This document shows, piece after piece, positions 6,001-57,987 of a stretch of DNA of 64,000 nt (position 1 is its first letter; each line of letters begins with the position of its first letter). The notes beneath the pieces are model-generated. The model made no database searches. It saw only the letters and a program-made list of their open reading frames with translations, and was not told the origin of the DNA. Position numbers and translations under genes: made by a program. The DNA is from Planctomycetota bacterium (GTDB lineage Bacteria > Planctomycetota > PUPC01 > DSUN01): assembly GCA_035527715.1 (NCBI GenBank), contig DATKZY010000096.1, positions 4,350-68,349 on the forward strand. The letters are read 5' to 3'.

Positions 6001-8202
6001 AAGCGCCTCGCCTCCGAATCCCTCGCCTACAGCTCGAACATCCATCCCGTCATCCGCAAGAATGCGTCCGACGCGGTCGTCGGCATCCTGTTCTACCTCC
6101 TCCTGGCCGTCCCGTTCGCCCTCTTCGCCGAGAAGCTGCTCGTCGGCCACCCCGACCTGCGGGTGCAGGTGGCGGTCCAGGGCCTCATCTTCCTGCTGTT
6201 CTTCCTGGCGTTGCGGGCGGTGCACCCGGCGGTGCAGCTCGTCCGCAGCCCGTACGTGATCCTGCTGGGCTTCATCACGTTCGCCCTCGCCGCGATGGTC
6301 ACGGCGTTCCTCGGCGGGCGGTTCAAGAAGAACCTGGCGGAGTTGAGCCGCCGTCGCCAGGAGCGCGCCGAGGCGGCCGACGTGTCGCGCGCGGGCGCGG
6401 CGGCCACGGCGTTCGTCCTCGGGCTGTCGAACCTGCGCAAGCGCCCCGTCCGCACCGGCCTCACCATCGGCACCCTCATCCTCACGACGTTCGTCATGCT
6501 CTGCTTCGCGTCGTTCAGCTCGGACGTTGTTGACGTGGAGTTCGCGCTCGGCAAGGCGCCCTACACGGGCCTCCTGGTGCGGGACCGTGGCCTGAAGAAC
6601 GTAGCGGATGCCGCGGCGCCGCTCCGAGAACTCTACGGCGAGGACCACGTGATCGTCCAGCGCGACTGGGCTGGGAACCTCGAGATTCCCTGGGGGAAGG
6701 CGCCCGAGCTGGCCGCGTTCACCGTCGCGTCGGTGGCAGGCGAGAAGACGTTCGAGGCCACGGCGAACGCGATTCTCGGCCTCAGCCGCCGCGAGCCCGA
6801 CGTGACGCCGGTCAAGGGAGCCTTCGACGTGCTCGTCCGTTGGTTCGAATCGAACACCGAGCTGTCGTGCTTCCTGTCGCGGGCGATGGCCGACCAGTTG
6901 CGGGTGGCCGACGAGGCGGTGGAGAAGGGCACGGCGACGGCCAGCGTCGGCGGCCGCAGCTACACGGTGCTCGGCATCTTCGACGGGGCCCGGCTCGACC
7001 GGGTGACCGACCTCGACGGCCAGCCGCTCTTGCCCGTGGACATCTTGTCGGTCCGCAGCCCCGCGCAGGGCGCAGCGGCCTACAGCGAGGAGGCGACGGA
7101 AATCCCCGAGAACGTGCCTCGGCTCGCCGCCGACCGCGTGGTCATCACGCCGGTCGAGGCCATGCCCTCGCGGACCCTCACCGCCTCGGTCGCCGTGGCG
7201 TTCCAGGGCATGGACTACCGTGCGGCGCGGCAGGCGATCACCACGCACCTCGAGCGGTCCGCCGAGCCGACCTATTACGGCCTCGACGGCGTGGCCTTCT
7301 ACGGCGGCAAGTTCCGCATGCAGTCGCTCGAGGGCGTGCTCGACCTCATCCTCCCCATCATCATCGCGGCGCTCACGGTGCTGAACACCATGCGGGGCAG
7401 CGTTTACGAGCGGCGGGGCGAGCTGTACGTCTTCAACGCCGTGGGGCTTTCGCCGAACCACATTCGGTCGCTGTTCCTCGCCGAGGCATCGGTCTACGCC
7501 GTGGTGGGCGCGGTGGGCGGCTACCTGCTGGCACAGGGCGCGAGCACGGCCCTCAGGGCCGCCGGCCTCACGGCGGGGCTGGCGATGAACTACTCGAGCC
7601 TGTCCAGCGTGCTCGTGAGCGTGGTGATCATCCTGGTCGTGCTCGGCTCGAGCCTGTATCCCGCGCGAATGGCCGCGCGCCTCGCCGCCCCCGCCGAGAC
7701 GATGACCCGCCGCCGCGAGACCGCGGCGGGCGATGCCATCGAGCTGGATCTGCCTTTCACCTTCAACCGCCGCGACCGCGTGGCGATTGTGCCCTACTTT
7801 GTGGACTGGTTCGGGGACTACGGCGAGGGCTCGGCGGGCGAGTTCTTCTGCTCGCCGCCCGAGTGCGGCATTCGGGCCGACGAGGCGGGCCAGGCCGAGC
7901 CCTTCGTCGAGACGACCACCTGGCTCAAGCCCTACGACCTCGGCGTGAGCCAGGCGGTGAGCCTGGTTGTGCGGACGATACGCGGCGTGGGGACACGCCG
8001 CCCACAACAGACGGGCGACAACGTGGCCACGGTGGTGATGACGCGCAAGAGCGGCGACAAGGAGTCGTGGGAGCGCTGCTGCCACGCCTTCGTCGGCCTG
8101 CTCCGCAAGCGCTTCCTCACCTGGCGAGCCATCCCCGATGAGGAACGCGAACGCTTGCTCGAAAGGGGGAGGCGGATGTTGGAGGCTGGCCAAGACGCGT
8201 GA
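3034..8202 (+). CDS. Giant (1722 aa) MacB/FtsX-type ABC permease with a large periplasmic N-terminal region that includes a degenerate M28-like pseudo-peptidase domain
   Basis: N-terminal signal/TM (MRKLLSNAALTLVLGGLCIAALFAF). An M28-like stretch DSYSYVPNLAPGAQQACGAAALLSLARHL...ATQGHGQGLAG parallels the M28 motifs H-x-D, GADDNASG and EExGLxGS, but with DD->QQ and EE->GH. The C-terminal part has the FtsX/MacB signatures LRKRPVRTGLTIGTLILTTFVMLCFASFSS, a large periplasmic loop, and then MRGSVYERRGELYVFNAVGLSPNHIRSLFLAEASVYAVVGAVGGYLLAQG. Confidence 0.75.
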   Translation: MRKLLSNAALTLVLGGLCIAALFAFNRAAAPQPCILPPSGVEPPDYKAIAASVTEEGLLNGLRSLCSGPSRCPGVLVRDPQNPGPDVPEDWRWTAEERYVKHTLRGLGFAVYLQPFEVTVPRGEATIESSVELKGIEIHPMEPNWFRTACTPHLGLTGKVFRGEKGLAREFRDVDLRSNFVLLPLGTPWITVAGMGAAAVLYYDDGKQLAGARWGDHVDASVSVPRFFVTGDAASLVGNTVTIRSKVWWTEWGDPNLVAVLDVPNPEGEAVVVNAYCDSYSYVPNLAPGAQQACGAAALLSLARHLSDEKGRLKRSVILLATQGHGQGLAGIREFFRVLGARERREEAIREAEAEEQETLVGYRLARDVAKVAMDDAYWTATTRETENAFWVGKDDSVRRAFYDVLAGFADRELMASVEEVTQRRVDWVRDNLAVRDTEGNETNSFSAYNEARKRQLAAQAALARPPWRLKEQWLNPLGTPADETRDRPQVVKNLIFDAGCRAAEASHRNDKAIARRKLARALGRYQRLLFLGLDLTARSGRIGLVCGEPKQVSACMPADAEVAAQFRLAADRLQAADPSLDYAKTKKGQRRFANLLRGNDTKDLGFATEWYGAPSYFESLAALWAGYPAFSLVTLDDNRETLGTPFDTLDALLKPPASPDEEPPLRNLCVVTRLVTAAVSQLARGHGRIVPLARGSDLTTIRGEVVSQVGDSLTPNHPMPGALVRFGPPLVSGRPTVVPPGVGTDWVVTADWRGRFELPCVWPTALSQDWGAEVDIDAAVVRPEDGEVTWTLSTPKSGEGAPYAVRRVRLAQYQKSQATAVVFRAAPVQMFPMADPATLRPYAGFDFLETKSMAPPQDFKTESSGGTHVCFVPPDSRLYFTFKKGQRRNPSLMEIRAFALGASGPADGSQLEGAPEITGNGYFAADSPSITNLELDASLSMAQVNARRTRLQDRYGMADDMVLRYNEKAEGLADEAQKLAAAGRMVEAKRLASESLAYSSNIHPVIRKNASDAVVGILFYLLLAVPFALFAEKLLVGHPDLRVQVAVQGLIFLLFFLALRAVHPAVQLVRSPYVILLGFITFALAAMVTAFLGGRFKKNLAELSRRRQERAEAADVSRAGAAATAFVLGLSNLRKRPVRTGLTIGTLILTTFVMLCFASFSSDVVDVEFALGKAPYTGLLVRDRGLKNVADAAAPLRELYGEDHVIVQRDWAGNLEIPWGKAPELAAFTVASVAGEKTFEATANAILGLSRREPDVTPVKGAFDVLVRWFESNTELSCFLSRAMADQLRVADEAVEKGTATASVGGRSYTVLGIFDGARLDRVTDLDGQPLLPVDILSVRSPAQGAAAYSEEATEIPENVPRLAADRVVITPVEAMPSRTLTASVAVAFQGMDYRAARQAITTHLERSAEPTYYGLDGVAFYGGKFRMQSLEGVLDLILPIIIAALTVLNTMRGSVYERRGELYVFNAVGLSPNHIRSLFLAEASVYAVVGAVGGYLLAQGASTALRAAGLTAGLAMNYSSLSSVLVSVVIILVVLGSSLYPARMAARLAAPAETMTRRRETAAGDAIELDLPFTFNRRDRVAIVPYFVDWFGDYGEGSAGEFFCSPPECGIRADEAGQAEPFVETTTWLKPYDLGVSQAVSLVVRTIRGVGTRRPQQTGDNVATVVMTRKSGDKESWERCCHAFVGLLRKRFLTWRAIPDEERERLLERGRRMLEAGQDA

Positions 8203-8278
8203 CGCGTGACGCGTGATCAGAGAAGAACAGAACCGCGCTCTTCTGGTCACGGGTCACGCGTCACAGGTCACGCATCAG
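8197..8278. repeat. Long imperfect hairpin built on the GTGACGCGTGAC motif (arms GTGACGCGTGACGCGTGATCAGAGAAGA and TCTTCTGGTCACGGGTCACGCGTCAC)
   Basis: An inverted repeat of about 28 bp with a 12-nt loop, sitting exactly at the junction between the stop of gene B (8200-8202) and the start of gene C. Same family as 12262-12345 and 41905-41925. Confidence 0.6.
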
Positions 8279-12261: not shown

Positions 12262-12264
<3 letters not shown>

Positions 12265-12345
12265 CTCGTGACGCGTGACGCGTGGTCGGAACGCAAGCTG
12301 GCTTGCTCTCTTCCTGTCACGCGTCACGGGTCACGCGTCACGATG
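12262..12345. repeat. Long hairpin of the GTGACGCGTGAC family between the two ABC ATPase genes
   Basis: Arms CGTGACGCGTGACGCGTGGTCGGAA and TTCCTGTCACGCGTCACGGGTCACGCGTCACG, with an inner small hairpin GCAAGCTGGCTTGC. It begins at the stop of ATPase 1. Confidence 0.6.
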
Positions 12346-13120: not shown

Positions 13121-13131
13121 CACGAGCGCGG

Positions 13132-13152
13132 AAAAGACACCCGCTGTCTTTT
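13132..13152 (+). terminator. Stem-loop AAAAGACAcccgcTGTCTTTT followed by a T-run (intrinsic terminator-like)
   Basis: Perfect 8-bp stem with a TTTTGCC tail, 12 bp after the stop of ATPase 2. Confidence 0.6.
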
Positions 13153-13181
13153 GCCGGAACGGCCCTGCGGGTGCTTCGCAC

Positions 13182-13202
13182 AAAAGACAGCGGGTGTCTT
13201 TT
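13182..13202. terminator. Second copy of the hairpin (CAAAAGACAgcgggTGTCTTTTCC), inverted relative to the first; the pair looks like a bidirectional terminator
   Basis: It is the reverse complement of the 13132-13152 hairpin arms, so the two together can also form a longer cruciform. Confidence 0.5.
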
Positions 13203-13271
13203 CCGCTTGCCTCTCTGTGGCGCGAATGTGCTACTCACAGTCCCTGCTCGCATCCGACACGAGCCGCGCGC

Positions 13272-13300
13272 TTGACCGCGGCGAACGGGATGCCTATGAT
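13272..13300 (+). promoter_or_regulatory. Sigma70-like promoter: TTGACC, 17-nt spacer, TATGAT
   Basis: Exact -35 TTGACC at 13272-13277 and -10 TATGAT at 13295-13300 with a 17-nt spacer, upstream of the GH32 gene. Confidence 0.6.
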
Positions 13301-13512
13301 GGCTCACCGAGGTCCCGCGAGCGCAGCGGTCCACGGGGCCAAACGTCCAGCCTGGCGGCTCCGAGCACCTGAGCTGGCACTGCTGGGACGTGACGGACCT
13401 CGCCGGCAGAGAGGCTGCGATCCAGGTCGCGGACAAGCGCACCGGCGGCTGGGGCCACATCAACGTGGACCACATCATTCAGAGCGACAGGAAACGCGAG
13501 GAGAAGCCTGCC

Positions 13513-15144
13513 ATGCGGGAACTCGTCGTCGAGAAACGCTACCTCCACCTGCCCGTGAAGAACGGCGCGGCCAAGCAGCGGATGAAGGTGTCGGTGGGTG
13601 ACAAGATCGTGGACGAGTTCGACATCGAGCTGGCCGACGGCGAGCCCGACTTCTGGGTGTTCCTCGACATGGCCCCCTACAAGGGCCAGAAGGCCACGAT
13701 TGATGTCGGCCGTCTGCCCGAGGAATCCAAGGGCCTCGCCGCCATCACCCAGGCCGACGACGTGCCCGACGCGGCGAACCTCTACAAGGAGAAGTACCGC
13801 CCGCAGTTCCACTTCTCGTCGCGCCGCGGCTGGAACAACGACCCGAACGGCCTCGTCTTCCATAAGGGCGAGTACCACCTCTTCTACCAGCACAACCCCT
13901 ACGGCTGGAACTGGGGCAACATGCACTGGGGCCACGCCGTCAGCAAGGACCTGGTGCACTGGACCGAGCTGCCCGTCGCCATCTACCCCTTCCGCTATGG
14001 CGACTGGGTCTACAGCGGCAGCGCCATCGTGGACAAGGAGAACGCGGCGGGGTGGAAGAAAGGCGACGAGGACGTGATCGTCGCCGCCTACACCAGCACC
14101 GGCCGCGGCGAGGCCATCGCTTACTCGCTCAACCGCGGCCGCACCTTCACCGACTACGAGGGCAACCCCGTCGTCAAGCACAGCGGCCGCGACCCCAAGC
14201 TCATCTGGTACGCGGGGTCACATCTTCATTTCGCACTTGGCGGCAAAGTGCCAAATGAAGATGTGACCCCCGGACACTGGGTCATGGCCGTCTACGACGA
14301 GCACGAGGGCAAGCGCTGGATCGCCTTCCACACCTCGCCGAACCTGAAGGACTGGACGTTCCAGAGCCGCACCGAGGGCTATTTCGAGTGCCCCGAAATC
14401 TTCGAGCTGCCGGTGGATGGCGACAAGTCGAAGACCCGCTGGGTCATCTACGCCGCCGACGGGGCCTACGCCGTCGGCTCGTTCGACGGGAAGACCTTCA
14501 CGCCCGACCACCAGGGCAAGCACCGCTTCAACTGGGGCAATTGCTTCTACGCCTCGCAGACCTTCAGCGACATCCCCCCTGAGGATGGCCGCCGCATCCA
14601 GATCGCCTGGGGCCGCATCGGCCACAAGGACATGCCCTTCAACCAGATGATGAACTTCCCCGTCGTCCTCACCCTGCGGACGACCGACGAAGGCGTCCGC
14701 ATGTTCGCCGAGCCGGTCAAGGAGATCGCGCTTCTGCACGCGAAGAAGCATTCGTGGAATGGGCTGACGCTGAAGGAGGGCGAGAACCCGCTCAAAGGCA
14801 TCGAGGGCGACCTGTTCCACATCGTCGCCGAGTTCGAGCCGGGCGACGCGGCGCAGGTCGGCTTCAGCCTCCGGGGCACCCCCGTGGCCTACGACGCCAA
14901 GGCCCAGCAACTCGATGCCAAGGGCTGCAAGGCCGCGCTGAAGCCCGAGGGCGGGAAGATTCGCCTGGAGATGCTCGTGGACCGCACGTCGGTCGAGGTC
15001 TTCGGCAATCGGGGGCGCGTCTACATGCCCGTGGGTGTCATCCCGCCCGAGGACAATCGCTCGATCGAGGTCTTCGCCCGAGGCGGCGCCGCGAAGATCG
15101 TCTCGCTCGAGGTCAACAAGTTGCGTTCCGCCTGGCAGAAATGA
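13513..15144 (+). CDS. Glycoside hydrolase family 32 (beta-fructofuranosidase / levanase-like) carrying an in-frame 57-bp palindromic insertion
   Basis: GH32 motifs are present: WNNDPNGLVFHKGEYHLFYQHNP (NDPNG catalytic block), WGHAVSKDLVHWTELPVA, the RDP block (GRDPKLIWY) and the EC block (YFECPEIFEL). The ATG at 13513 follows a GGAG-rich stretch. An in-frame GTG at 13390 would add 41 aa of protein-like sequence, so the start is uncertain. Confidence 0.75.
   Translation: MRELVVEKRYLHLPVKNGAAKQRMKVSVGDKIVDEFDIELADGEPDFWVFLDMAPYKGQKATIDVGRLPEESKGLAAITQADDVPDAANLYKEKYRPQFHFSSRRGWNNDPNGLVFHKGEYHLFYQHNPYGWNWGNMHWGHAVSKDLVHWTELPVAIYPFRYGDWVYSGSAIVDKENAAGWKKGDEDVIVAAYTSTGRGEAIAYSLNRGRTFTDYEGNPVVKHSGRDPKLIWYAGSHLHFALGGKVPNEDVTPGHWVMAVYDEHEGKRWIAFHTSPNLKDWTFQSRTEGYFECPEIFELPVDGDKSKTRWVIYAADGAYAVGSFDGKTFTPDHQGKHRFNWGNCFYASQTFSDIPPEDGRRIQIAWGRIGHKDMPFNQMMNFPVVLTLRTTDEGVRMFAEPVKEIALLHAKKHSWNGLTLKEGENPLKGIEGDLFHIVAEFEPGDAAQVGFSLRGTPVAYDAKAQQLDAKGCKAALKPEGGKIRLEMLVDRTSVEVFGNRGRVYMPVGVIPPEDNRSIEVFARGGAAKIVSLEVNKLRSAWQK
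14214..14270. mobile_element. 57-bp palindromic MITE-like element, copy 1, inserted in frame inside the GH32 gene
   Basis: GGGGTCACATCTTCATTTCGCACTTGGCGGCAAAGTGCCAAATGAAGATGTGACCCC is a near-perfect inverted repeat. At 57 bp it is exactly 19 codons and encodes AGSHLHFALGGKVPNEDVT, which splits the RDPKLIWY and PGHWVMAV blocks that are contiguous in GH32 enzymes. Confidence 0.75.
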
Positions 15145-27583: not shown

Positions 27584-29239
27584 TCATTCAATCAGGAACG
27601 AGCAGCCTCCCTCGCCCGACTTCTCGATGAGGTCGCTGCGGCGGCCGGCCGTGCCCCACCCACCCGGCGTCACGTGCGTGCAGGGCGGCCAGCCGTTGCC
27701 CGAGAAGACCAGGTCGCCCTCGGGGAAGAGCATCCGCCCCCGCCCATCATACGACACGTAGCCCGCGCGCGCCGGCGGCGCCACCTCGCCCAGGCTCCAG
27801 AAGAAGCCGGCCGACGGCTCGGGCGCCAGCGGCAGCTCGCAGCAACGGGTCAGCTTCTCCCCCTCGATGCGCACTTGGGTGAACCGCTCCTGGCTCGAGA
27901 AGAAGGGGCTCAGCGTCTTCAGGCAGAACGAGCCGGCGTGCACGGGCGACACGCCCTCCAGCTCGAACCTCCACCGCACCGTGTGGCCCTCGGCCCAGGC
28001 CTCGAAGAGGACCCGCTTGCCCGCATTCTCGCGCAGGTAGCTGATGCGCGTGCCGCCGCGCGGAGTAGCCACGAACTGACACGAATGGGCACGAACGCCG
28101 AAGCCGCCCGAAGCCGGTCTCCCGGAACTTCGTGCGGGTTCGTGTGCTTTCGTGGCTATTCCCTCCACTTTCCACGGGATGAACCAGTCGGCCCGCGGCC
28201 GGCTCGGCCACGAGTTGGCCCCGCCGAACTCGTCCCAGTCGCCCTCGGGGCAGTCGAGCACCCACATGCTCTGGGGGAACCAGGGGACGAAGATCGAGAG
28301 CGTCGCCCACTCGGTGGGCACGAGGCGGATGGGCGCCTTGAGATACAGGTCTTCGCGGATGGCGACGGGCTTCGGCGGGTCGAAGCGCTCGACGCGATAG
28401 GCGGCAGGTGTCGCATCTTCATTTGGCACATGGCGGCTATGTGCGAAATGAAGATGCGACACCTCAGCGGGCGGCCCGTCGGCGACGCAGCGGAAGCCGC
28501 TGTCGTAGATGCGCATCTGGTGCGACCACGAGAGCCGGTTCGACGGCAGGAAGGAGTACGCCTGCTTGTGGCAGAAGGCGCCGCCCGCGAGGACCGCGGG
28601 ATTGGGGTCGGCCGAGGCGCCCGCCCGGTTGGTCTGCGGATAGACGACCTTCACCCACTCGCCGACCAGGCCGTAGCTGCCGAGGCCGAAGGGACCGCAG
28701 TCGGCATAGGCGCCCACGGGGATCGCGACGCCGAGGCCCACGTTGCCCGGGTTGCGAAGGCAGAAGCCGTCGCGCCACTCGTTGCCCCAGGGGAAGAGCC
28801 GGCCGTCGTCGCCGCGCCACGCCCGTTCCCACTCGACCTCGGTCGGCAGGCGCTTGCCGAGCCACGCCGCGTAGGCGGCCGCATCCTCCGAGTTGACGCC
28901 GACCATCGGCAGTGCGAGGTTCTCCGGGCTGAAGTGGTGCCAGCCGGTCAGCTCCGCCCAGCCCACGAGCCAACCGTTGTAGAGGATGCTGTAGCCCGTC
29001 TCTTGCATGAAGCGCAGGAACTGGCCGCGCGTGACGGGGTGCTTATCCATCCAGAACTCGCCCGTCTCCAGCTCGCGGCGGTCGGCGTGGAAGTGGAGCA
29101 TGTCGGGATGCACACCGGCCTTCCGCGCCTGCTCGGCCTTCTCGTCGGGCGTGAGGCCGAAGAGCACGTCGCCCGCCGGCACGTGCACCATGGCCCGGTC
29201 GAGTTCCTGGGGGTCGTAGTTGGCAACTGTGTGCCACAT
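27584..29239 (-). CDS. Formylglycine-generating enzyme (SUMF1/FGE) family protein with a roughly 280-aa C-terminal extension that carries an in-frame palindromic insertion
   Basis: FGE blocks MVHVPAGDVLFG, HPVTRGQFLRFMQETGY, RLPTEVEWERAWRG, GLVGEWV, GGAFCHKQ and RIYDSGFRCV. Start at MWHTVANY (CAT at 29237-29239); the longer ORF-track start at 29440 reads through a pseudogene remnant in another frame. Confidence 0.75.
   Translation of the reverse strand: MWHTVANYDPQELDRAMVHVPAGDVLFGLTPDEKAEQARKAGVHPDMLHFHADRRELETGEFWMDKHPVTRGQFLRFMQETGYSILYNGWLVGWAELTGWHHFSPENLALPMVGVNSEDAAAYAAWLGKRLPTEVEWERAWRGDDGRLFPWGNEWRDGFCLRNPGNVGLGVAIPVGAYADCGPFGLGSYGLVGEWVKVVYPQTNRAGASADPNPAVLAGGAFCHKQAYSFLPSNRLSWSHQMRIYDSGFRCVADGPPAEVSHLHFAHSRHVPNEDATPAAYRVERFDPPKPVAIREDLYLKAPIRLVPTEWATLSIFVPWFPQSMWVLDCPEGDWDEFGGANSWPSRPRADWFIPWKVEGIATKAHEPARSSGRPASGGFGVRAHSCQFVATPRGGTRISYLRENAGKRVLFEAWAEGHTVRWRFELEGVSPVHAGSFCLKTLSPFFSSQERFTQVRIEGEKLTRCCELPLAPEPSAGFFWSLGEVAPPARAGYVSYDGRGRMLFPEGDLVFSGNGWPPCTHVTPGGWGTAGRRSDLIEKSGEGGCSFLIE
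28407..28463. mobile_element. 57-bp palindromic MITE-like element, copy 2, in frame inside the FGE-like gene
   Basis: GGTGTCGCATCTTCATTTGGCACATGGCGGCTATGTGCGAAATGAAGATGCGACACC. It encodes SHLHFAHSRHVPNEDATP on the minus (gene) strand; because it is palindromic the plus strand encodes SHLHLAHGGYVRNEDATP. Confidence 0.75.
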
Positions 29240-43387: not shown

Positions 43388-43415
43388 GTTCCGCGTGCAA
43401 GTGTGCACGCCCTAC
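43388..43415 (-). repeat. Solo REP element (reverse orientation) of the family that flanks the RAYT gene
   Basis: GTTCCGCGTGCAAGTGTGCACGCCCTAC is the reverse complement of GTAGGGCGTGCATACTTGCACGCGGAAC with 2 mismatches. It lies in the 5' UTR between the promoter and the start. Confidence 0.7.
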
Positions 43416-43441
43416 CCAAGAACGGATAGGAGGTCCCTGCC

Positions 43442-46400: not shown

Positions 46401-47437
46401 CCAAGGGTGCCCGCGCCATGCGCGGCAGCCTCAACTGCCGCAACTTCAAGTACGACTTCGCCAACCTCTTCGTCCAGAAAGTCGCCGAGAAGGACTCGCA
46501 GGACGCTGCCTTCGTCGCCCTCATCGAGCCCTTCGTCGGCGAGCCGTTCATCACCGGCAAACGGCTGCTCAACGTGCAGGTGGGCAACATGAACGGCACG
46601 CCGAAGAACCTGGGGAACGCGGCCTACAAGGCCGTCGCCGTCGAGGTGAAGACGGCGAATGGCCACACCGACATCTGTTTCGCCGATGGGCTGCCCTTTG
46701 TGGACCGCCTCATCCCGGAGGCCAAGATGCACCTGTCGGGCGAGTTCGCCTGCGTCTCGACCGACAAGGAGGGCTTGCGCCTGGCCACCCTTGCTGGCGG
46801 CATGCTCCTCGAAGCGCCGGGCATCAAGCTCGTGCCCGCCCAGCGCGTGCGGACGGGCAGGGTCGTGAAGGTGGATTACCTTACGAAGACGCTGTGGATT
46901 GACCAGCCCTGGCCCGCGAGCGCGCGGCCGAGCGTCTTCGAGATCGGCGTGCCCGGCCACTGGACCACCTACACGGCGCTCGACGTGAAGCCCGATGGGA
47001 ACCTGACCCGCATCACGGTCGAGAATGGCGCCGACTACTTCCGCTCGGGGATCGAAGAGATCAAGCCCGAGGAGGGCATTGTCCGCTGCGCCCTCGGCCC
47101 CACGATGGGCAACCGCCCCGGCATCAACAAGGGCTGGGTCGCCTCGGACGACGAGATGACGACCTTCTGGCGGGCCGACCTCGTGGGCGACAAGACGTTC
47201 AAGCTCACCGGCGCGCCCGTGACGAAGGAGGCGTTCGGCAAGGCGGGCGTCCTGCGCCTGTGGGAGTATGGCGTCGGCGACACCGTGCGCCAGAGCACGT
47301 TTGTCAACGTCCGCCGCACCGCCGCCGGCCAGTTCGAGCTGACCGCCGATGTAGATGTCACCATCACCCTCCCCGACGGCAAGCCGCGCACCGTCACCGC
47401 CAAGGAGCTGGACGCAGAGGGGAAGGTGCGATGGTAG
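43442..47437 (+). CDS. Large secreted heparinase II/III-like (polysaccharide lyase superfamily) protein, 1331 aa
   Basis: TTG start preceded by AGGAGG at an 8-nt spacing. Signal MSRTLTSLLAVMILASMLALTRA. GFGIGHQHADTMDLQVIAQG matches the Hepar_II_III GHxHxD...F.L...G motif. The stop TAG overlaps the first REP. Confidence 0.8.
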   Translation: MSRTLTSLLAVMILASMLALTRAGEYDTGGALAGYRLPPFPTQHGEKPGQPGELPGKHDSDPLAPCFELNPGSPELYRNYWFKYCPSRSFFDRQSKLKGWVAPNIPGAAKAEDYATPLYWVPRHEAVVNTGLKWKALPVVRCSVGSPVLKLDLGELEIGVYAIRLVAAVPTEQLKPFRTPLYVRAKINDGPKGATNTYRLRLGYCDEFYSIAEIYFHADEKRRFNAEVAVDEGSGVEMLLHEISLDDALAGVERRAIKSRTTLPEARPPAPSNVEPPKEQRLSRDAEVWLAFPHDNAQAFGHGWMGGDEHTLRRNVAIGVPGKTAREIADEFGDWRPGKGDVFLVNKKLQLEYTVADYRKGLPLPAPYPYRDDGAGLFFPDPADPGKGHLWAPIANEVQSRFRNYCGTLVRRNVDKFLKTGDTNAAREAAVALARWAYAFPTIDAANFLLYVTRDPGPYGRDIRCRRRDSTATFYPHYPLYVDPILYDYDRLFDFIKGNAELAESIGRFVPWVKTPQDVVKLIDAYLVQTTAKRILRYHYYTDPMDIANAAAVVGDTKVTDPWMEWLFSKTFIYPLPPVGIADAMITGCCRDGCEYIGSTFYAGGEGASRVAESLERYLTAGGNRKYDLSDKARYPKPVAHCTWRLKNVVAGWDFVRIGDVCGPDKVAGHTLRDLGFARNGWEWTADPRFAFILKHTIGRKEESDDDWAKIEAAAAKLKRAPWLDLRSRVMPMWAGVLESGLEHDDPRFRRAAYVRVGFGIGHQHADTMDLQVIAQGCPATMDGGQRPGYSSPGDGTTRVHNVVEVDGKGFQGYSWVRALADTPGARYLAAEAEPPEGATLFRRQVALIDVDEGQGSKPLPIEAQKPGSKLPAGVTPANSYVFDVFRVAGGKTHTYCFHATVEDDFQWNVADAKPVAEDDASEVGQYLDRFKSLPQKRFAGTAPDLLEATWRQTREPRLFGNEGMHRRPNFSDDLPRRFTRLHLLDAKGARAMRGSLNCRNFKYDFANLFVQKVAEKDSQDAAFVALIEPFVGEPFITGKRLLNVQVGNMNGTPKNLGNAAYKAVAVEVKTANGHTDICFADGLPFVDRLIPEAKMHLSGEFACVSTDKEGLRLATLAGGMLLEAPGIKLVPAQRVRTGRVVKVDYLTKTLWIDQPWPASARPSVFEIGVPGHWTTYTALDVKPDGNLTRITVENGADYFRSGIEEIKPEEGIVRCALGPTMGNRPGINKGWVASDDEMTTFWRADLVGDKTFKLTGAPVTKEAFGKAGVLRLWEYGVGDTVRQSTFVNVRRTAAGQFELTADVDVTITLPDGKPRTVTAKELDAEGKVRW

Positions 47438-48175
47438 GGCGTGCATACTTGCACGCGGAACGAATTGGGGTGACCTCGGCTATCGAAGATTCCGCGTGCA
47501 GGTATGCACGCCCTACCAAGGAGACCGGGCATGCCGCAATATCGCAGGTGGCGGGTCGAGGGCGGCATGTACTTCCTGACGGTTGTGACCCATGAACGGC
47601 GGCGAGTCTTCGCCGCGGAGTGGACGCGACAACTGCTCCGCGAGGCGATCTCAAAGGTGCGAGCCATTCGACCCTTTGAGGTGACGGCGATGGCTCTCAT
47701 GCCCGATCACTTCCACATGCTCTGGCAACTCCCCGATGGTGACGACGATTTCTCAACGCGTCTCGGCTCCATCAAGTACGCGTTCACCCGCGCATACTTG
47801 GCAGCCGGTGGGGAGGAAGGCGCGACAAGCGTGGGGCGGACTCGCCACAGGAATCGCGGGGTGTGGCAGAAGCGGTTCCACGAGCACCGCATCCGCGATG
47901 ACCAGGACTTCACCCGGCATGTGGAGTACATCCACTACAATCCCGTGAAGCACGAATACGCGGATTCCCCGGCGAAGTGGCCGTGGTCGAGCTTCCACCG
48001 TTACGTGAAGCTCGGGCTCTACGGCGAGCAGTGGTGTGACCCGGAGAACGCCGCTGAACTCGGGCCAGAGCCGGGCTTTGAGTGAAGCACGGTAGGGCGT
48101 GCATACTTGCACGCGGAACGAATCGGCGCCGGCGCCAGGGACAAGGGATTCCGCGTGCAAGTATGCACGCCCTAC
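47434..48175 (+). mobile_element. REP-RAYT unit: a tyrosine transposase gene flanked on each side by a convergent pair of REP hairpins
   Basis: REPs at 47434-47461 (+), 47489-47516 (-), 48092-48119 (+) and 48148-48175 (-), all variants of GTAGGGCGTGCATACTTGCACGCGGAAC, which contains the hairpin CGTGCA-TACT-TGCACG. The RAYT CDS lies between them. Confidence 0.85.
47531..48085 (+). CDS. REP-associated tyrosine transposase (RAYT, IS200/IS605 Y1 family)
   Basis: HuH motif PDHFHMLW and the catalytic Tyr block EYIHYNPVKH. 184 aa. Confidence 0.85.
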   Translation: MPQYRRWRVEGGMYFLTVVTHERRRVFAAEWTRQLLREAISKVRAIRPFEVTAMALMPDHFHMLWQLPDGDDDFSTRLGSIKYAFTRAYLAAGGEEGATSVGRTRHRNRGVWQKRFHEHRIRDDQDFTRHVEYIHYNPVKHEYADSPAKWPWSSFHRYVKLGLYGEQWCDPENAAELGPEPGFE

Positions 48176-48192
48176 CGAAGAGGGAAGAGCTG

Positions 48193-57819: not shown

Positions 57820-57889
57820 CCTCGGCTCCAAGGGGGTAACCGGGGGAATCCTACCATGAACCGCAGCGCGCGGCAAACGCCCCCGGCCA

Positions 57890-57946
57890 GGGGTCACATC
57901 TTCATTTCGCACATGGCGGCTATGTGCCAAGTGAAGATGTAACCCC
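57890..57946. mobile_element. 57-bp palindromic MITE-like element, copy 3 (intergenic)
   Basis: GGGGTCACATCTTCATTTCGCACATGGCGGCTATGTGCCAAGTGAAGATGTAACCCC, located upstream of the small membrane protein gene. Confidence 0.75.
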
Positions 57947-57987
57947 GGCGTGCGGCCCGCGGGCAGCGATTCTCGCCGTGCGCCGTG

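Follow-up and report, generated by a model that had tools for sequence, protein, structure and literature searches.

The 64-kb stretch of planctomycete DNA analysed here (the window, by which we mean the whole stretch) contains three copies of a 57-bp inverted repeat, two of which lie within predicted enzyme genes. [quoted passage not shown] The three copies and the two host genes are as follows; C.C and G.G denote the two orientations of the element, which differ by a mismatch within its stem.

13390-15144, plus strand: host gene 1, glycoside hydrolase family 32 (GH32), with Pfam matches to a DUF4980 remnant and to the GH32 N and C domains.
14214-14270, plus strand: copy 1, in frame within the GH32 gene and encoding GSHLHFALGGKVPNEDVTP; the coding strand is in the C.C-mismatch orientation.
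27584-29239, minus strand: host gene 2, a formylglycine-generating-enzyme (FGE) family protein with PF03781 at residues 3-239 of the query and a conserved C-terminal domain; the start codon was checked.
28407-28463, minus strand: copy 2, in frame within the FGE-family gene right behind the FGE domain and encoding (E)VSHLHFAHSRHVPNEDATP; it is of the subvariant GGTGTCGC...GCGACACC.
57890-57946, no strand assigned: copy 3, intergenic, flanked by divergently transcribed genes and the most degraded of the three.

All three copies were found exactly where they had been predicted. The 57-nt consensus given with the original prediction has three mismatches to copy 3, and its description as a near-perfect palindrome stands. 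The neighbors of copy 3 are one gene on the minus strand, with its start at 57822, and one on the plus strand, with its start at 57985. A 16-nt arm pattern gave six arm matches in the window versus 0.02 expected by chance, and an nhmmer profile built from all copies found no fourth copy inside the 64 kb. The GC content was 52.6% for the element and 69.7% for the window, in agreement with the predicted contrast between an element of about 50% AT and a host of about 70% GC. RNA folding, which had been suggested as a check, gave a single long and strong hairpin for each window copy (dG -41 to -46 kcal/mol, z -8.7 to -10.6, or about -9 to -10.6 in round numbers), and DNA folding of the element gave a dG of -26.8 kcal/mol with a z of -9. 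The placement of the two genic copies was as predicted. The GH32 protein reads ...RDPKLIWYA(GSHLHFALGGKVPNEDVTP)GHWVMAV... and the FGE-family protein reads ...CVADGPPAE(VSHLHFAHSRHVPNEDATP)AAYRVE..., where the parentheses enclose the residues encoded by the element.

Other members of the family were sought by scanning one genome per species (185,579 species) with both arms as a strict pattern. The scan yielded 53 loci, all of which fell in the Planctomycetota metagenome-assembled genomes (MAGs) JBGLNR01, a single 5.97-Mb scaffold, and VGYV01, plus one 2.5-kb contig that is labelled Chloroflexota and originates from the same study as JBGLNR. The flanks of the window copies are absent from these 53 loci and thus the window represents a third genome; its GH32 protein is also present on the JGI contigs Ga0307378_10000652 and Ga0307380_10004114. 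In all, 58 full-length copies from the window and the loci, representing at least three genomes, were analysed. Hence, related genomes hold at least 55 more copies with the palindrome conserved. No copy was found in viral contigs or in plasmid and phage collections, and no Rfam family matched the window at gathering thresholds. An arm pattern of 18 nt, 15 of them fully specified bases, gave eleven single matches in viral contigs that look like chance and were discarded. Several VGYV contigs terminate inside or beside a copy, showing that the repeat breaks assemblies.

The consensus of the 58 copies is GGGGTCACATCTTCATTTCGCACATGGCCGCCATGTGCCAAATGAAGATGTGACCCC. Positions 1-57 are nearly invariant and conservation ends sharply on both sides, where the flanks have background composition. 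Stem positions are paired in 98.3% of the cells of the alignment, and four stem pairs change on both sides: 3/55 (G-C to T-A), 7/51 (A-T to G-C), 16/42, and 24/34. Such double changes were observed in 22 cells versus 5.2 +/- 1.7 in shuffled alignments, a count that subfamily structure can inflate. Pairing of the hairpin is maintained through these compensatory changes. The stem also carries a C.C mismatch (G.G on the opposite strand) at positions 19/39 in 48 of 56 copies, and this mismatch is linked to a G.T wobble at 26/32; the element therefore has polarity. Two variants have the same termini of about 16 nt and different cores, one of 98 bp (L003 275-372) and one of 66 bp (L031 138-203), and thus the termini look like the conserved functional part. 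The copies at L009 and L015 and window copy 3 are truncated or degraded. The list of variant and partial copies also contains partial copies that abut full ones in tandem or nested arrangement (L041 2939-2999, L021 1577-1621, L030 4724-4761, and L036 90-129).

Direct repeats of 2-9 nt flanking the element occurred at control level for every length, and hence target sites are not duplicated. Nor does the palindrome continue into the flanks, which show only a weak target preference (G or C at -2 and +59, with T at -1 and A at +58 enriched). These data bear on the possibility of a classical MITE, derived from an insertion sequence (IS) by internal deletion and moved by a DDE transposase that recognises terminal inverted repeats (TIRs). 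The arms are indeed perfect TIRs, variants with shared termini and different cores exist, and the genomes concerned contain IS fragments, such as one of ISL3 in L054. However, a target-site duplication is lacking at every length from 2 to 9 nt, the three sites compared below show loss and not duplication of host nucleotides, and neither about 400 kb of loci nor a metagenome scan for lone arms revealed an IS with GGGGTCACATCTTCAT termini. We therefore regard a classical MITE as very unlikely. The label MITE-like given in the original prediction holds only loosely, as neither a target-site duplication nor an autonomous partner was found; the anatomy is nearer to that of the hairpin repeats of the RPE and repetitive extragenic palindromic (REP) kinds.

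The coding capacity of the element is restricted. Frames 1 and 3 contain TGA (positions 43-45 and 51-53) and frame 2 is open; as the sequence is palindromic, the opposite strand likewise has frame 2 as its single open frame. Coding regions were called by use of the third-position GC signal (GC3), which is usable in genomes of about 70% GC. In a strict test that demanded an open frame and a GC3 signal on both sides, 31 of the 58 copies lay in frame 2 of a coding region, and a relaxed test raised this to about 35 of 58 (about 60%), with L044 as a further known case. The coding strand of the 31 strict copies was of the G.G type (GSHLHLAHGGHVRNEDVTP) in 19, of the C.C type (GSHLHFAHGRHVPNEDVTP) in 9, and mixed in 3 (p = 0.09). 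The ability to encode a similar peptide from either strand is thus real for the family. The original prediction had claimed this property for the window copies, but the two genic copies share one orientation relative to the coding strand and hence do not by themselves demonstrate it.

The predicted peptide is a hydrophilic, His-rich loop of 19 residues, GSHLH(F/L)AH..V(P/R)NEDVTP, and the proteins that contain it are unrelated. In a V/A-type ATPase subunit the copy lies within the nucleotide-binding domain and in MurB between the two domains of the protein. Further hosts are polyphosphate kinase (PPK1), an OMP-decarboxylase (PyrF) fusion, a UvrD-like helicase-nuclease, FdhD, a histidine kinase, an old-yellow-enzyme homologue, spermidine synthase, an N6 DNA methylase, and PMT_2 glycosyltransferases. 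The TPR-like protein P0242 (1219 aa) has four separate in-frame copies, of which three are G.G and one is C.C. A census of the peptide at the protein level was less informative. A word-indexed search with a concatenated query, a method unsuited to short inserts, gave four candidates and an exhaustive search of cluster representatives gave 12 clusters, a low count because the representative of a cluster often lacks the insert. A translational bypass or intein-like reading of the genic copies was rejected, as the frame has no stop codon and there are no matching take-off and landing codons.

The conserved, His-rich character of SHLHxAH..H..NEDVTP might suggest a motif that exists at the protein level, for example, a metal-binding loop acquired by descent or convergence, with the DNA palindrome being incidental. 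However, about 40% of the copies are not in frame in coding sequence, conservation is seen at the nucleotide level including third codon positions, both strands serve as the coding strand, and the segment is absent from orthologous proteins. The intergenic copies, and the fact that an identical stretch of 57 nt is conserved whichever way it is oriented, already contradict such a motif and leave it next to no chance of being correct.

Filled and empty sites were also compared. In the case of the GH32 protein 20 of 21 homologues lacked the insert, whereas the 21st had a different palindrome. The 20 empty homologues (62-89% identity) read RDPKxIWYA-PGK-HWVMAV. In the DNA the empty alleles have the order TGGTACGC-CCCTGGCAAG-CACTGG whereas the window has TGGTACGC-57 nt-CGGA-CACTGG, a net gain of 51 nt. 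For the FGE-family protein 18 of 19 homologues (53-86% identity) lacked the segment, the sole filled homologue being P0121 (locus L044, VGYV), and the net gain relative to the empty homologues was 45-48 nt. A third comparison was provided by L017 (VGYV), where a copy lies in a DUF6785 gene at a place where the window has 12 other nucleotides (2334-2345), a net difference of 48 nt. Both genic window copies do preserve the frame with exactly 19 codons as had been proposed, but the net gain relative to the orthologues is 15-17 residues, a few host codons having been lost.

The GH32 insertion was also examined at the structural level. An AlphaFold (AF2) model built from a 98-sequence alignment had a mean local confidence (pLDDT) of 91.8 and a pTM of 0.91, and its best Foldseek match was the exo-inulinase 8i12 (TM 0.85), a solved structure in the Protein Data Bank (PDB) that has a short turn at the insertion point. 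An earlier model from a 22-sequence alignment was poor (pLDDT 64.5, with the catalytic domain below 50) and was discarded. Residues 152-170 of the retained model, which are the insert, form its sole disordered or low-confidence segment and lie between the strands 143-150 and 172-181. Thus, the insert is predicted to be a low-pLDDT, disordered surface loop of hairpin form between two beta-strands; the original prediction had suggested a structural check of surface exposure. Given the five-bladed propeller that we take, from the family, to be the GH32 architecture, it would occupy the turn after the RDP strand.

The GH32 gene itself is 5'-truncated. Relative to homologues of about 708 aa it has lost about 123 N-terminal residues that every close homologue possesses, comprising the signal peptide and a portion of the N-terminal domain; tblastn homology to the orthologues begins at 13330, and in-frame stops lie upstream. 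Its pairwise divergence patterns are the same as those between intact orthologues. The function of the truncated copy is uncertain and it is the weaker example of a working enzyme gene; the FGE-family case and the housekeeping hosts in the other genomes are stronger examples. The gap behind the upstream ABC-transporter gene (13121-13389) contains a palindrome at 13128-13206 with perfect 26-bp arms (GCGGAAAAGACACCCGCTGTCTTTTG...reverse complement).

Taken together, these data support the central claim of the original prediction, RPE-like dispersed palindromes lying in frame in unrelated genes, in that the orthologues lack an equivalent segment and the palindrome recurs elsewhere in conserved form. 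We conclude, with a probability of about 0.78, that the 57-mer is a non-autonomous, hairpin-forming repeat of the REP/RPE kind that survives within genes only when its open frame is used and the site is tolerant. The element would multiply as DNA and land throughout the genome, and would not be a MITE of the cut-and-paste type. With a length that is a multiple of three and, on each strand, two frames with TGA and one that is open, a genic insertion would be expected to persist only in the open frame, since the other two frames contain TGA, and only where the protein tolerates it, for example in a surface loop or in a linker between domains. Tolerated copies would then be translated as the hydrophilic, His-rich loop of 19 residues.

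Several observations weigh against this conclusion and are considered together here. The first is the degree of conservation of orthologous copies. Seven orthologous filled pairs were identified. In five of these the element has one difference in 285 nt whereas the flanks have 257 in 2402 (10.7%; P about 3e-13), and in the three coding pairs none of 57 third codon positions differs in the element versus 23% in the flanks (P about 3e-7). For example, copy 2 and its L044 orthologue are identical at 57 of 57 positions with flanks that are 84-87% identical. In the host genes position 3 differs at 19-29% and positions 1 and 2 at 4-8%, a pattern that indicates that these genes are under purifying selection. 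The orthologues have private variants in common, such as GGTGTCGC...GCGACACC in the window and L044, and hence homogenisation from other copies by gene conversion is disfavoured. As neutral selfish DNA would not stay this conserved, the element itself seems constrained, although the sample is small. The two remaining pairs are less regular. In the sixth, which lies in the UvrD-like helicase gene (L010 3141-3197 versus L034 50-106 and L052 7160-7216), the central part of the element is oppositely oriented (C.C versus G.G type) and there is one compensated stem change; this could be due to inversion between the arms or to independent insertion at one site. The seventh pair, L015 versus L049, has one truncated copy.

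Such conservation raises the possibility that the hairpin serves as a signal which the host, or a resident enzyme, retains, and that its presence in genes is selected, not merely tolerated. The signal could be a structured site in DNA or RNA, for example one for an HUH enzyme, for RNase III-type control of mRNA, or for ribosome pausing. Orthologous copies with zero to one difference per 57 nt beside synonymous sites that differ at 19-27%, private variants that argue against gene conversion, compensatory stem changes, and retention of the mid-stem mismatch by 48 of 56 copies all fit this proposal. However, the copies lie both within genes that are unrelated and between genes, and they face either way with respect to transcription, orthologues in close relatives lack them, some copies are truncated or degraded as noted above, and only 5-7 orthologous pairs are available for judgement. 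We therefore consider a selected signal unlikely. On the view that the 57-mer is a tolerated REP/RPE-type repeat, its extra conservation would reflect selection on the hairpin itself.

A second difficulty lies in the junctions and in the evidence for movement. In three of three filled-versus-empty comparisons 6-12 nt of host sequence is missing, and thus the insertions are of a replacement type; these comparisons span 11-16% DNA divergence and later trimming is possible. To our knowledge, neither HUH nor DDE transposition replaces 6-12 nt of host DNA. Moreover, no within-species polymorphism for presence or absence of a copy was seen, a result that lends no support to recent mobility.

The third difficulty is the lack of an obvious mobilising enzyme. 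The window plus about 400 kb of loci contained no transposase gene with the 57-mer on both sides, and scanning metagenomes for lone arms returned only one orphan arm, beside a thiolase gene on a low-GC contig, and one 56-bp copy. The sole gene for a REP-associated tyrosine transposase (RAYT) recovered by a scan of the window and loci for HUH/Y1 motifs is flanked by a different, GTAG-tagged repeat. The orphan arm (L057 1322-1344, contig Ga0184636_1008314) is a lone 23-nt sequence, identical to the arm of the element, that lies just 3' of the thiolase gene; its contig has a much lower GC content, no second arm, and no transposase, and the arm may be a relic in an unrelated organism. The RAYT gene and its repeats lie in the window as follows.

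47531-48085, plus strand: RAYT gene (PF01797 Y1_Tnp, E 2e-8; NCBIfam NF047646 REP_Tyr_transpos, E 5e-54).
47432-47518 and 48090-48177: 88-bp doublets of GTAG-tagged hairpin repeats (GGTAGGGCGTGCATACTTGCACGCGGAA) that flank the RAYT gene, with a lone unit at 43389-43416.

The segment 47432-48177 is a complete REPtron, a RAYT gene together with its repeats, and hence HUH enzymes with hairpin repeats as their substrates are maintained in this lineage. The GTAG-tagged family was absent from the 69 loci searched. The sharp ends, the lack of a duplication, the long hairpin with its conserved mismatch, and the variable cores of the 57-mer all argue for an enzyme that recognises a folded single strand rather than for a DDE transposase. 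Tn3-family TIRs also begin GGGG, but a Tn3-derived origin was rejected because Tn3-derived elements make 5-bp duplications and none flank the 57-mer. The terminus GGGGTCAC, with the subvariants GGTGTCAC and GGTGTCGC, fits GGGGWSAS, the sequence shared by the TIRs that flank the RAYT-like genes called TIRYT, some such TIRs making up families of repeats (Di Nocera et al. 2013, PMC3733652). Hence, an HUH/Y1 tyrosine transposase of the RAYT/TIRYT type may have moved the copies in trans, with the hairpin in single-stranded form as its substrate, a tentative assignment that we rate at somewhat less than an even chance and that leaves the replacement-type junctions unexplained.

The 57-mer can be placed relative to several known systems. 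RPEs are AT-rich elements of 105-146 bp, and 19 open reading frames with an RPE are known in R. conorii (Ogata et al. 2000, as summarised in PMC2229807 and PMC10969869). Like them, the 57-mer is a dispersed palindrome in which a single frame is open, has many of its copies in frame within conserved genes that are unrelated to one another, coexists with other families in one genome, and has no known dedicated transposase; target duplication by RPEs is unclear. However, RPEs reside in the small genomes of obligate intracellular alphaproteobacteria whereas the 57-mer is a single hairpin in a planctomycete lineage of about 70% GC. We do not claim membership in the Rickettsia RPE families proper, from which length (57 versus 105-146 bp), composition, and phylum set it apart. 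A second likeness is to intragenic REP/TIR repeats, which are hairpins that lack target duplications, occur in some open reading frames (UvrD-type helicase genes among them), add 20-30 residues, and are found in bacteria of the PVC group (PMC3733652). Such intragenic REPs are documented as most numerous in the PVC bacterium Opitutus terrae and in R. conorii (PMC3733652). REPs are, however, 20-40 bp long, are tagged with GTAG or CGTC, and lie mainly outside genes, whereas the 57-mer has a 26-bp stem and is mostly genic. Moreover, the 57-bp consensus contains neither GTAG/CTAC nor CGTC/GACG and hence is not a tagged REP. Nor is it part of the REPIN/RAYT (REPtron) system of the window, whose RAYT serves another repeat family, as the 57-mer is a single hairpin and not a doublet of short REPs.

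ERIC, the 107-bp Correia element, and Coxiella QMITE1 are similarly small and non-autonomous with open frames occasionally fused to host reading frames, but they differ in having TA termini and target duplications and in being overwhelmingly intergenic (PMC2229807, PMC5896051). About 90% of prokaryotic MITEs are intergenic (PMC11602168) versus about 40% of the copies of the 57-mer. By behaviour the 57-mer matches the RPE/intragenic-REP class and by sequence it is neither a GTAG/CGTC REP nor a classical MITE. A limited literature search found no description of such a family in Planctomycetota.

In-frame palindromes are best known from Rickettsia, where they are usually discussed in connection with the relaxed selection that acts on small genomes of intracellular bacteria. 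The genic fraction found here in high-GC planctomycetes is similar or higher, one of which has a MAG scaffold of 5.97 Mb, and housekeeping genes are among the hosts. The occurrence of the same behaviour in this lineage suggests that what matters is how the element is built (one open frame, a length that is a multiple of three, and a loop-forming peptide), not the lifestyle of the host. Inserts of this kind have practical consequences, in that they split Pfam domain hits, break assemblies at contig ends, and may pass for lineage-specific protein features. In addition, comparison of conservation of the element with that of synonymous sites provides a testable handle on selection acting on REP-like hairpins.

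The 57-mer is not the only palindrome found within genes of this lineage. A second, of a different repeat family, lies in the FGE-family gene itself.

28058-28159, minus strand: palindrome of about 102 nt made of CACGAA/TTCGTG units, in frame and encoding IATKAHEPARSSGRPASGGFGVRAHSCQFVATPR.

This palindrome has an RNA folding dG of -63 and is unique within the window. Its 34-residue segment is fully absent from 17 homologues, present as a shorter partial form in P0122, and present in full in P0121, the palindrome lying at the orthologous site in the L044 locus of that protein. A third type was seen in the VGYV GH32 orthologue (P0015), where a different hairpin of 99 nt, (GGATGR)n/(YCATCC)n, is inserted in frame at L054 533-631, exactly at the loop occupied by copy 1. 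Both filled GH32 alleles, that of the window and that of P0015, lack the same Lys codon of PGK. Relatives of the (GGATGR)n hairpin lie at about L015 5792-5867 and about L007 6770-6860. Thus, several palindrome families behave alike, as in Rickettsia, and at least two others insert in frame in this lineage.

Since two unrelated palindromes share the GH32 loop in sister genomes and two lie in one FGE-family gene, we also considered a broader proposal, that these hairpins are under purifying selection at the nucleotide level, perhaps as mRNA structure or as sites recognised by a resident HUH enzyme, and that different families repeatedly seize the same sites by a replacement insertion that removes 6-12 nt. 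It addresses the two properties of the 57-mer that are unexplained, synonymous-site conservation and the reuse of insertion sites with replacement-type junctions. We give it an outside chance; if true, it would imply a structure-targeted, non-duplicative insertion mechanism that was previously undescribed.

Finally, a further palindromic family, composed of runs of a GACGCGT heptamer and their complement, is present in the window at 8194-8276 and 12262-12343, each copy lying between genes of the same strand.

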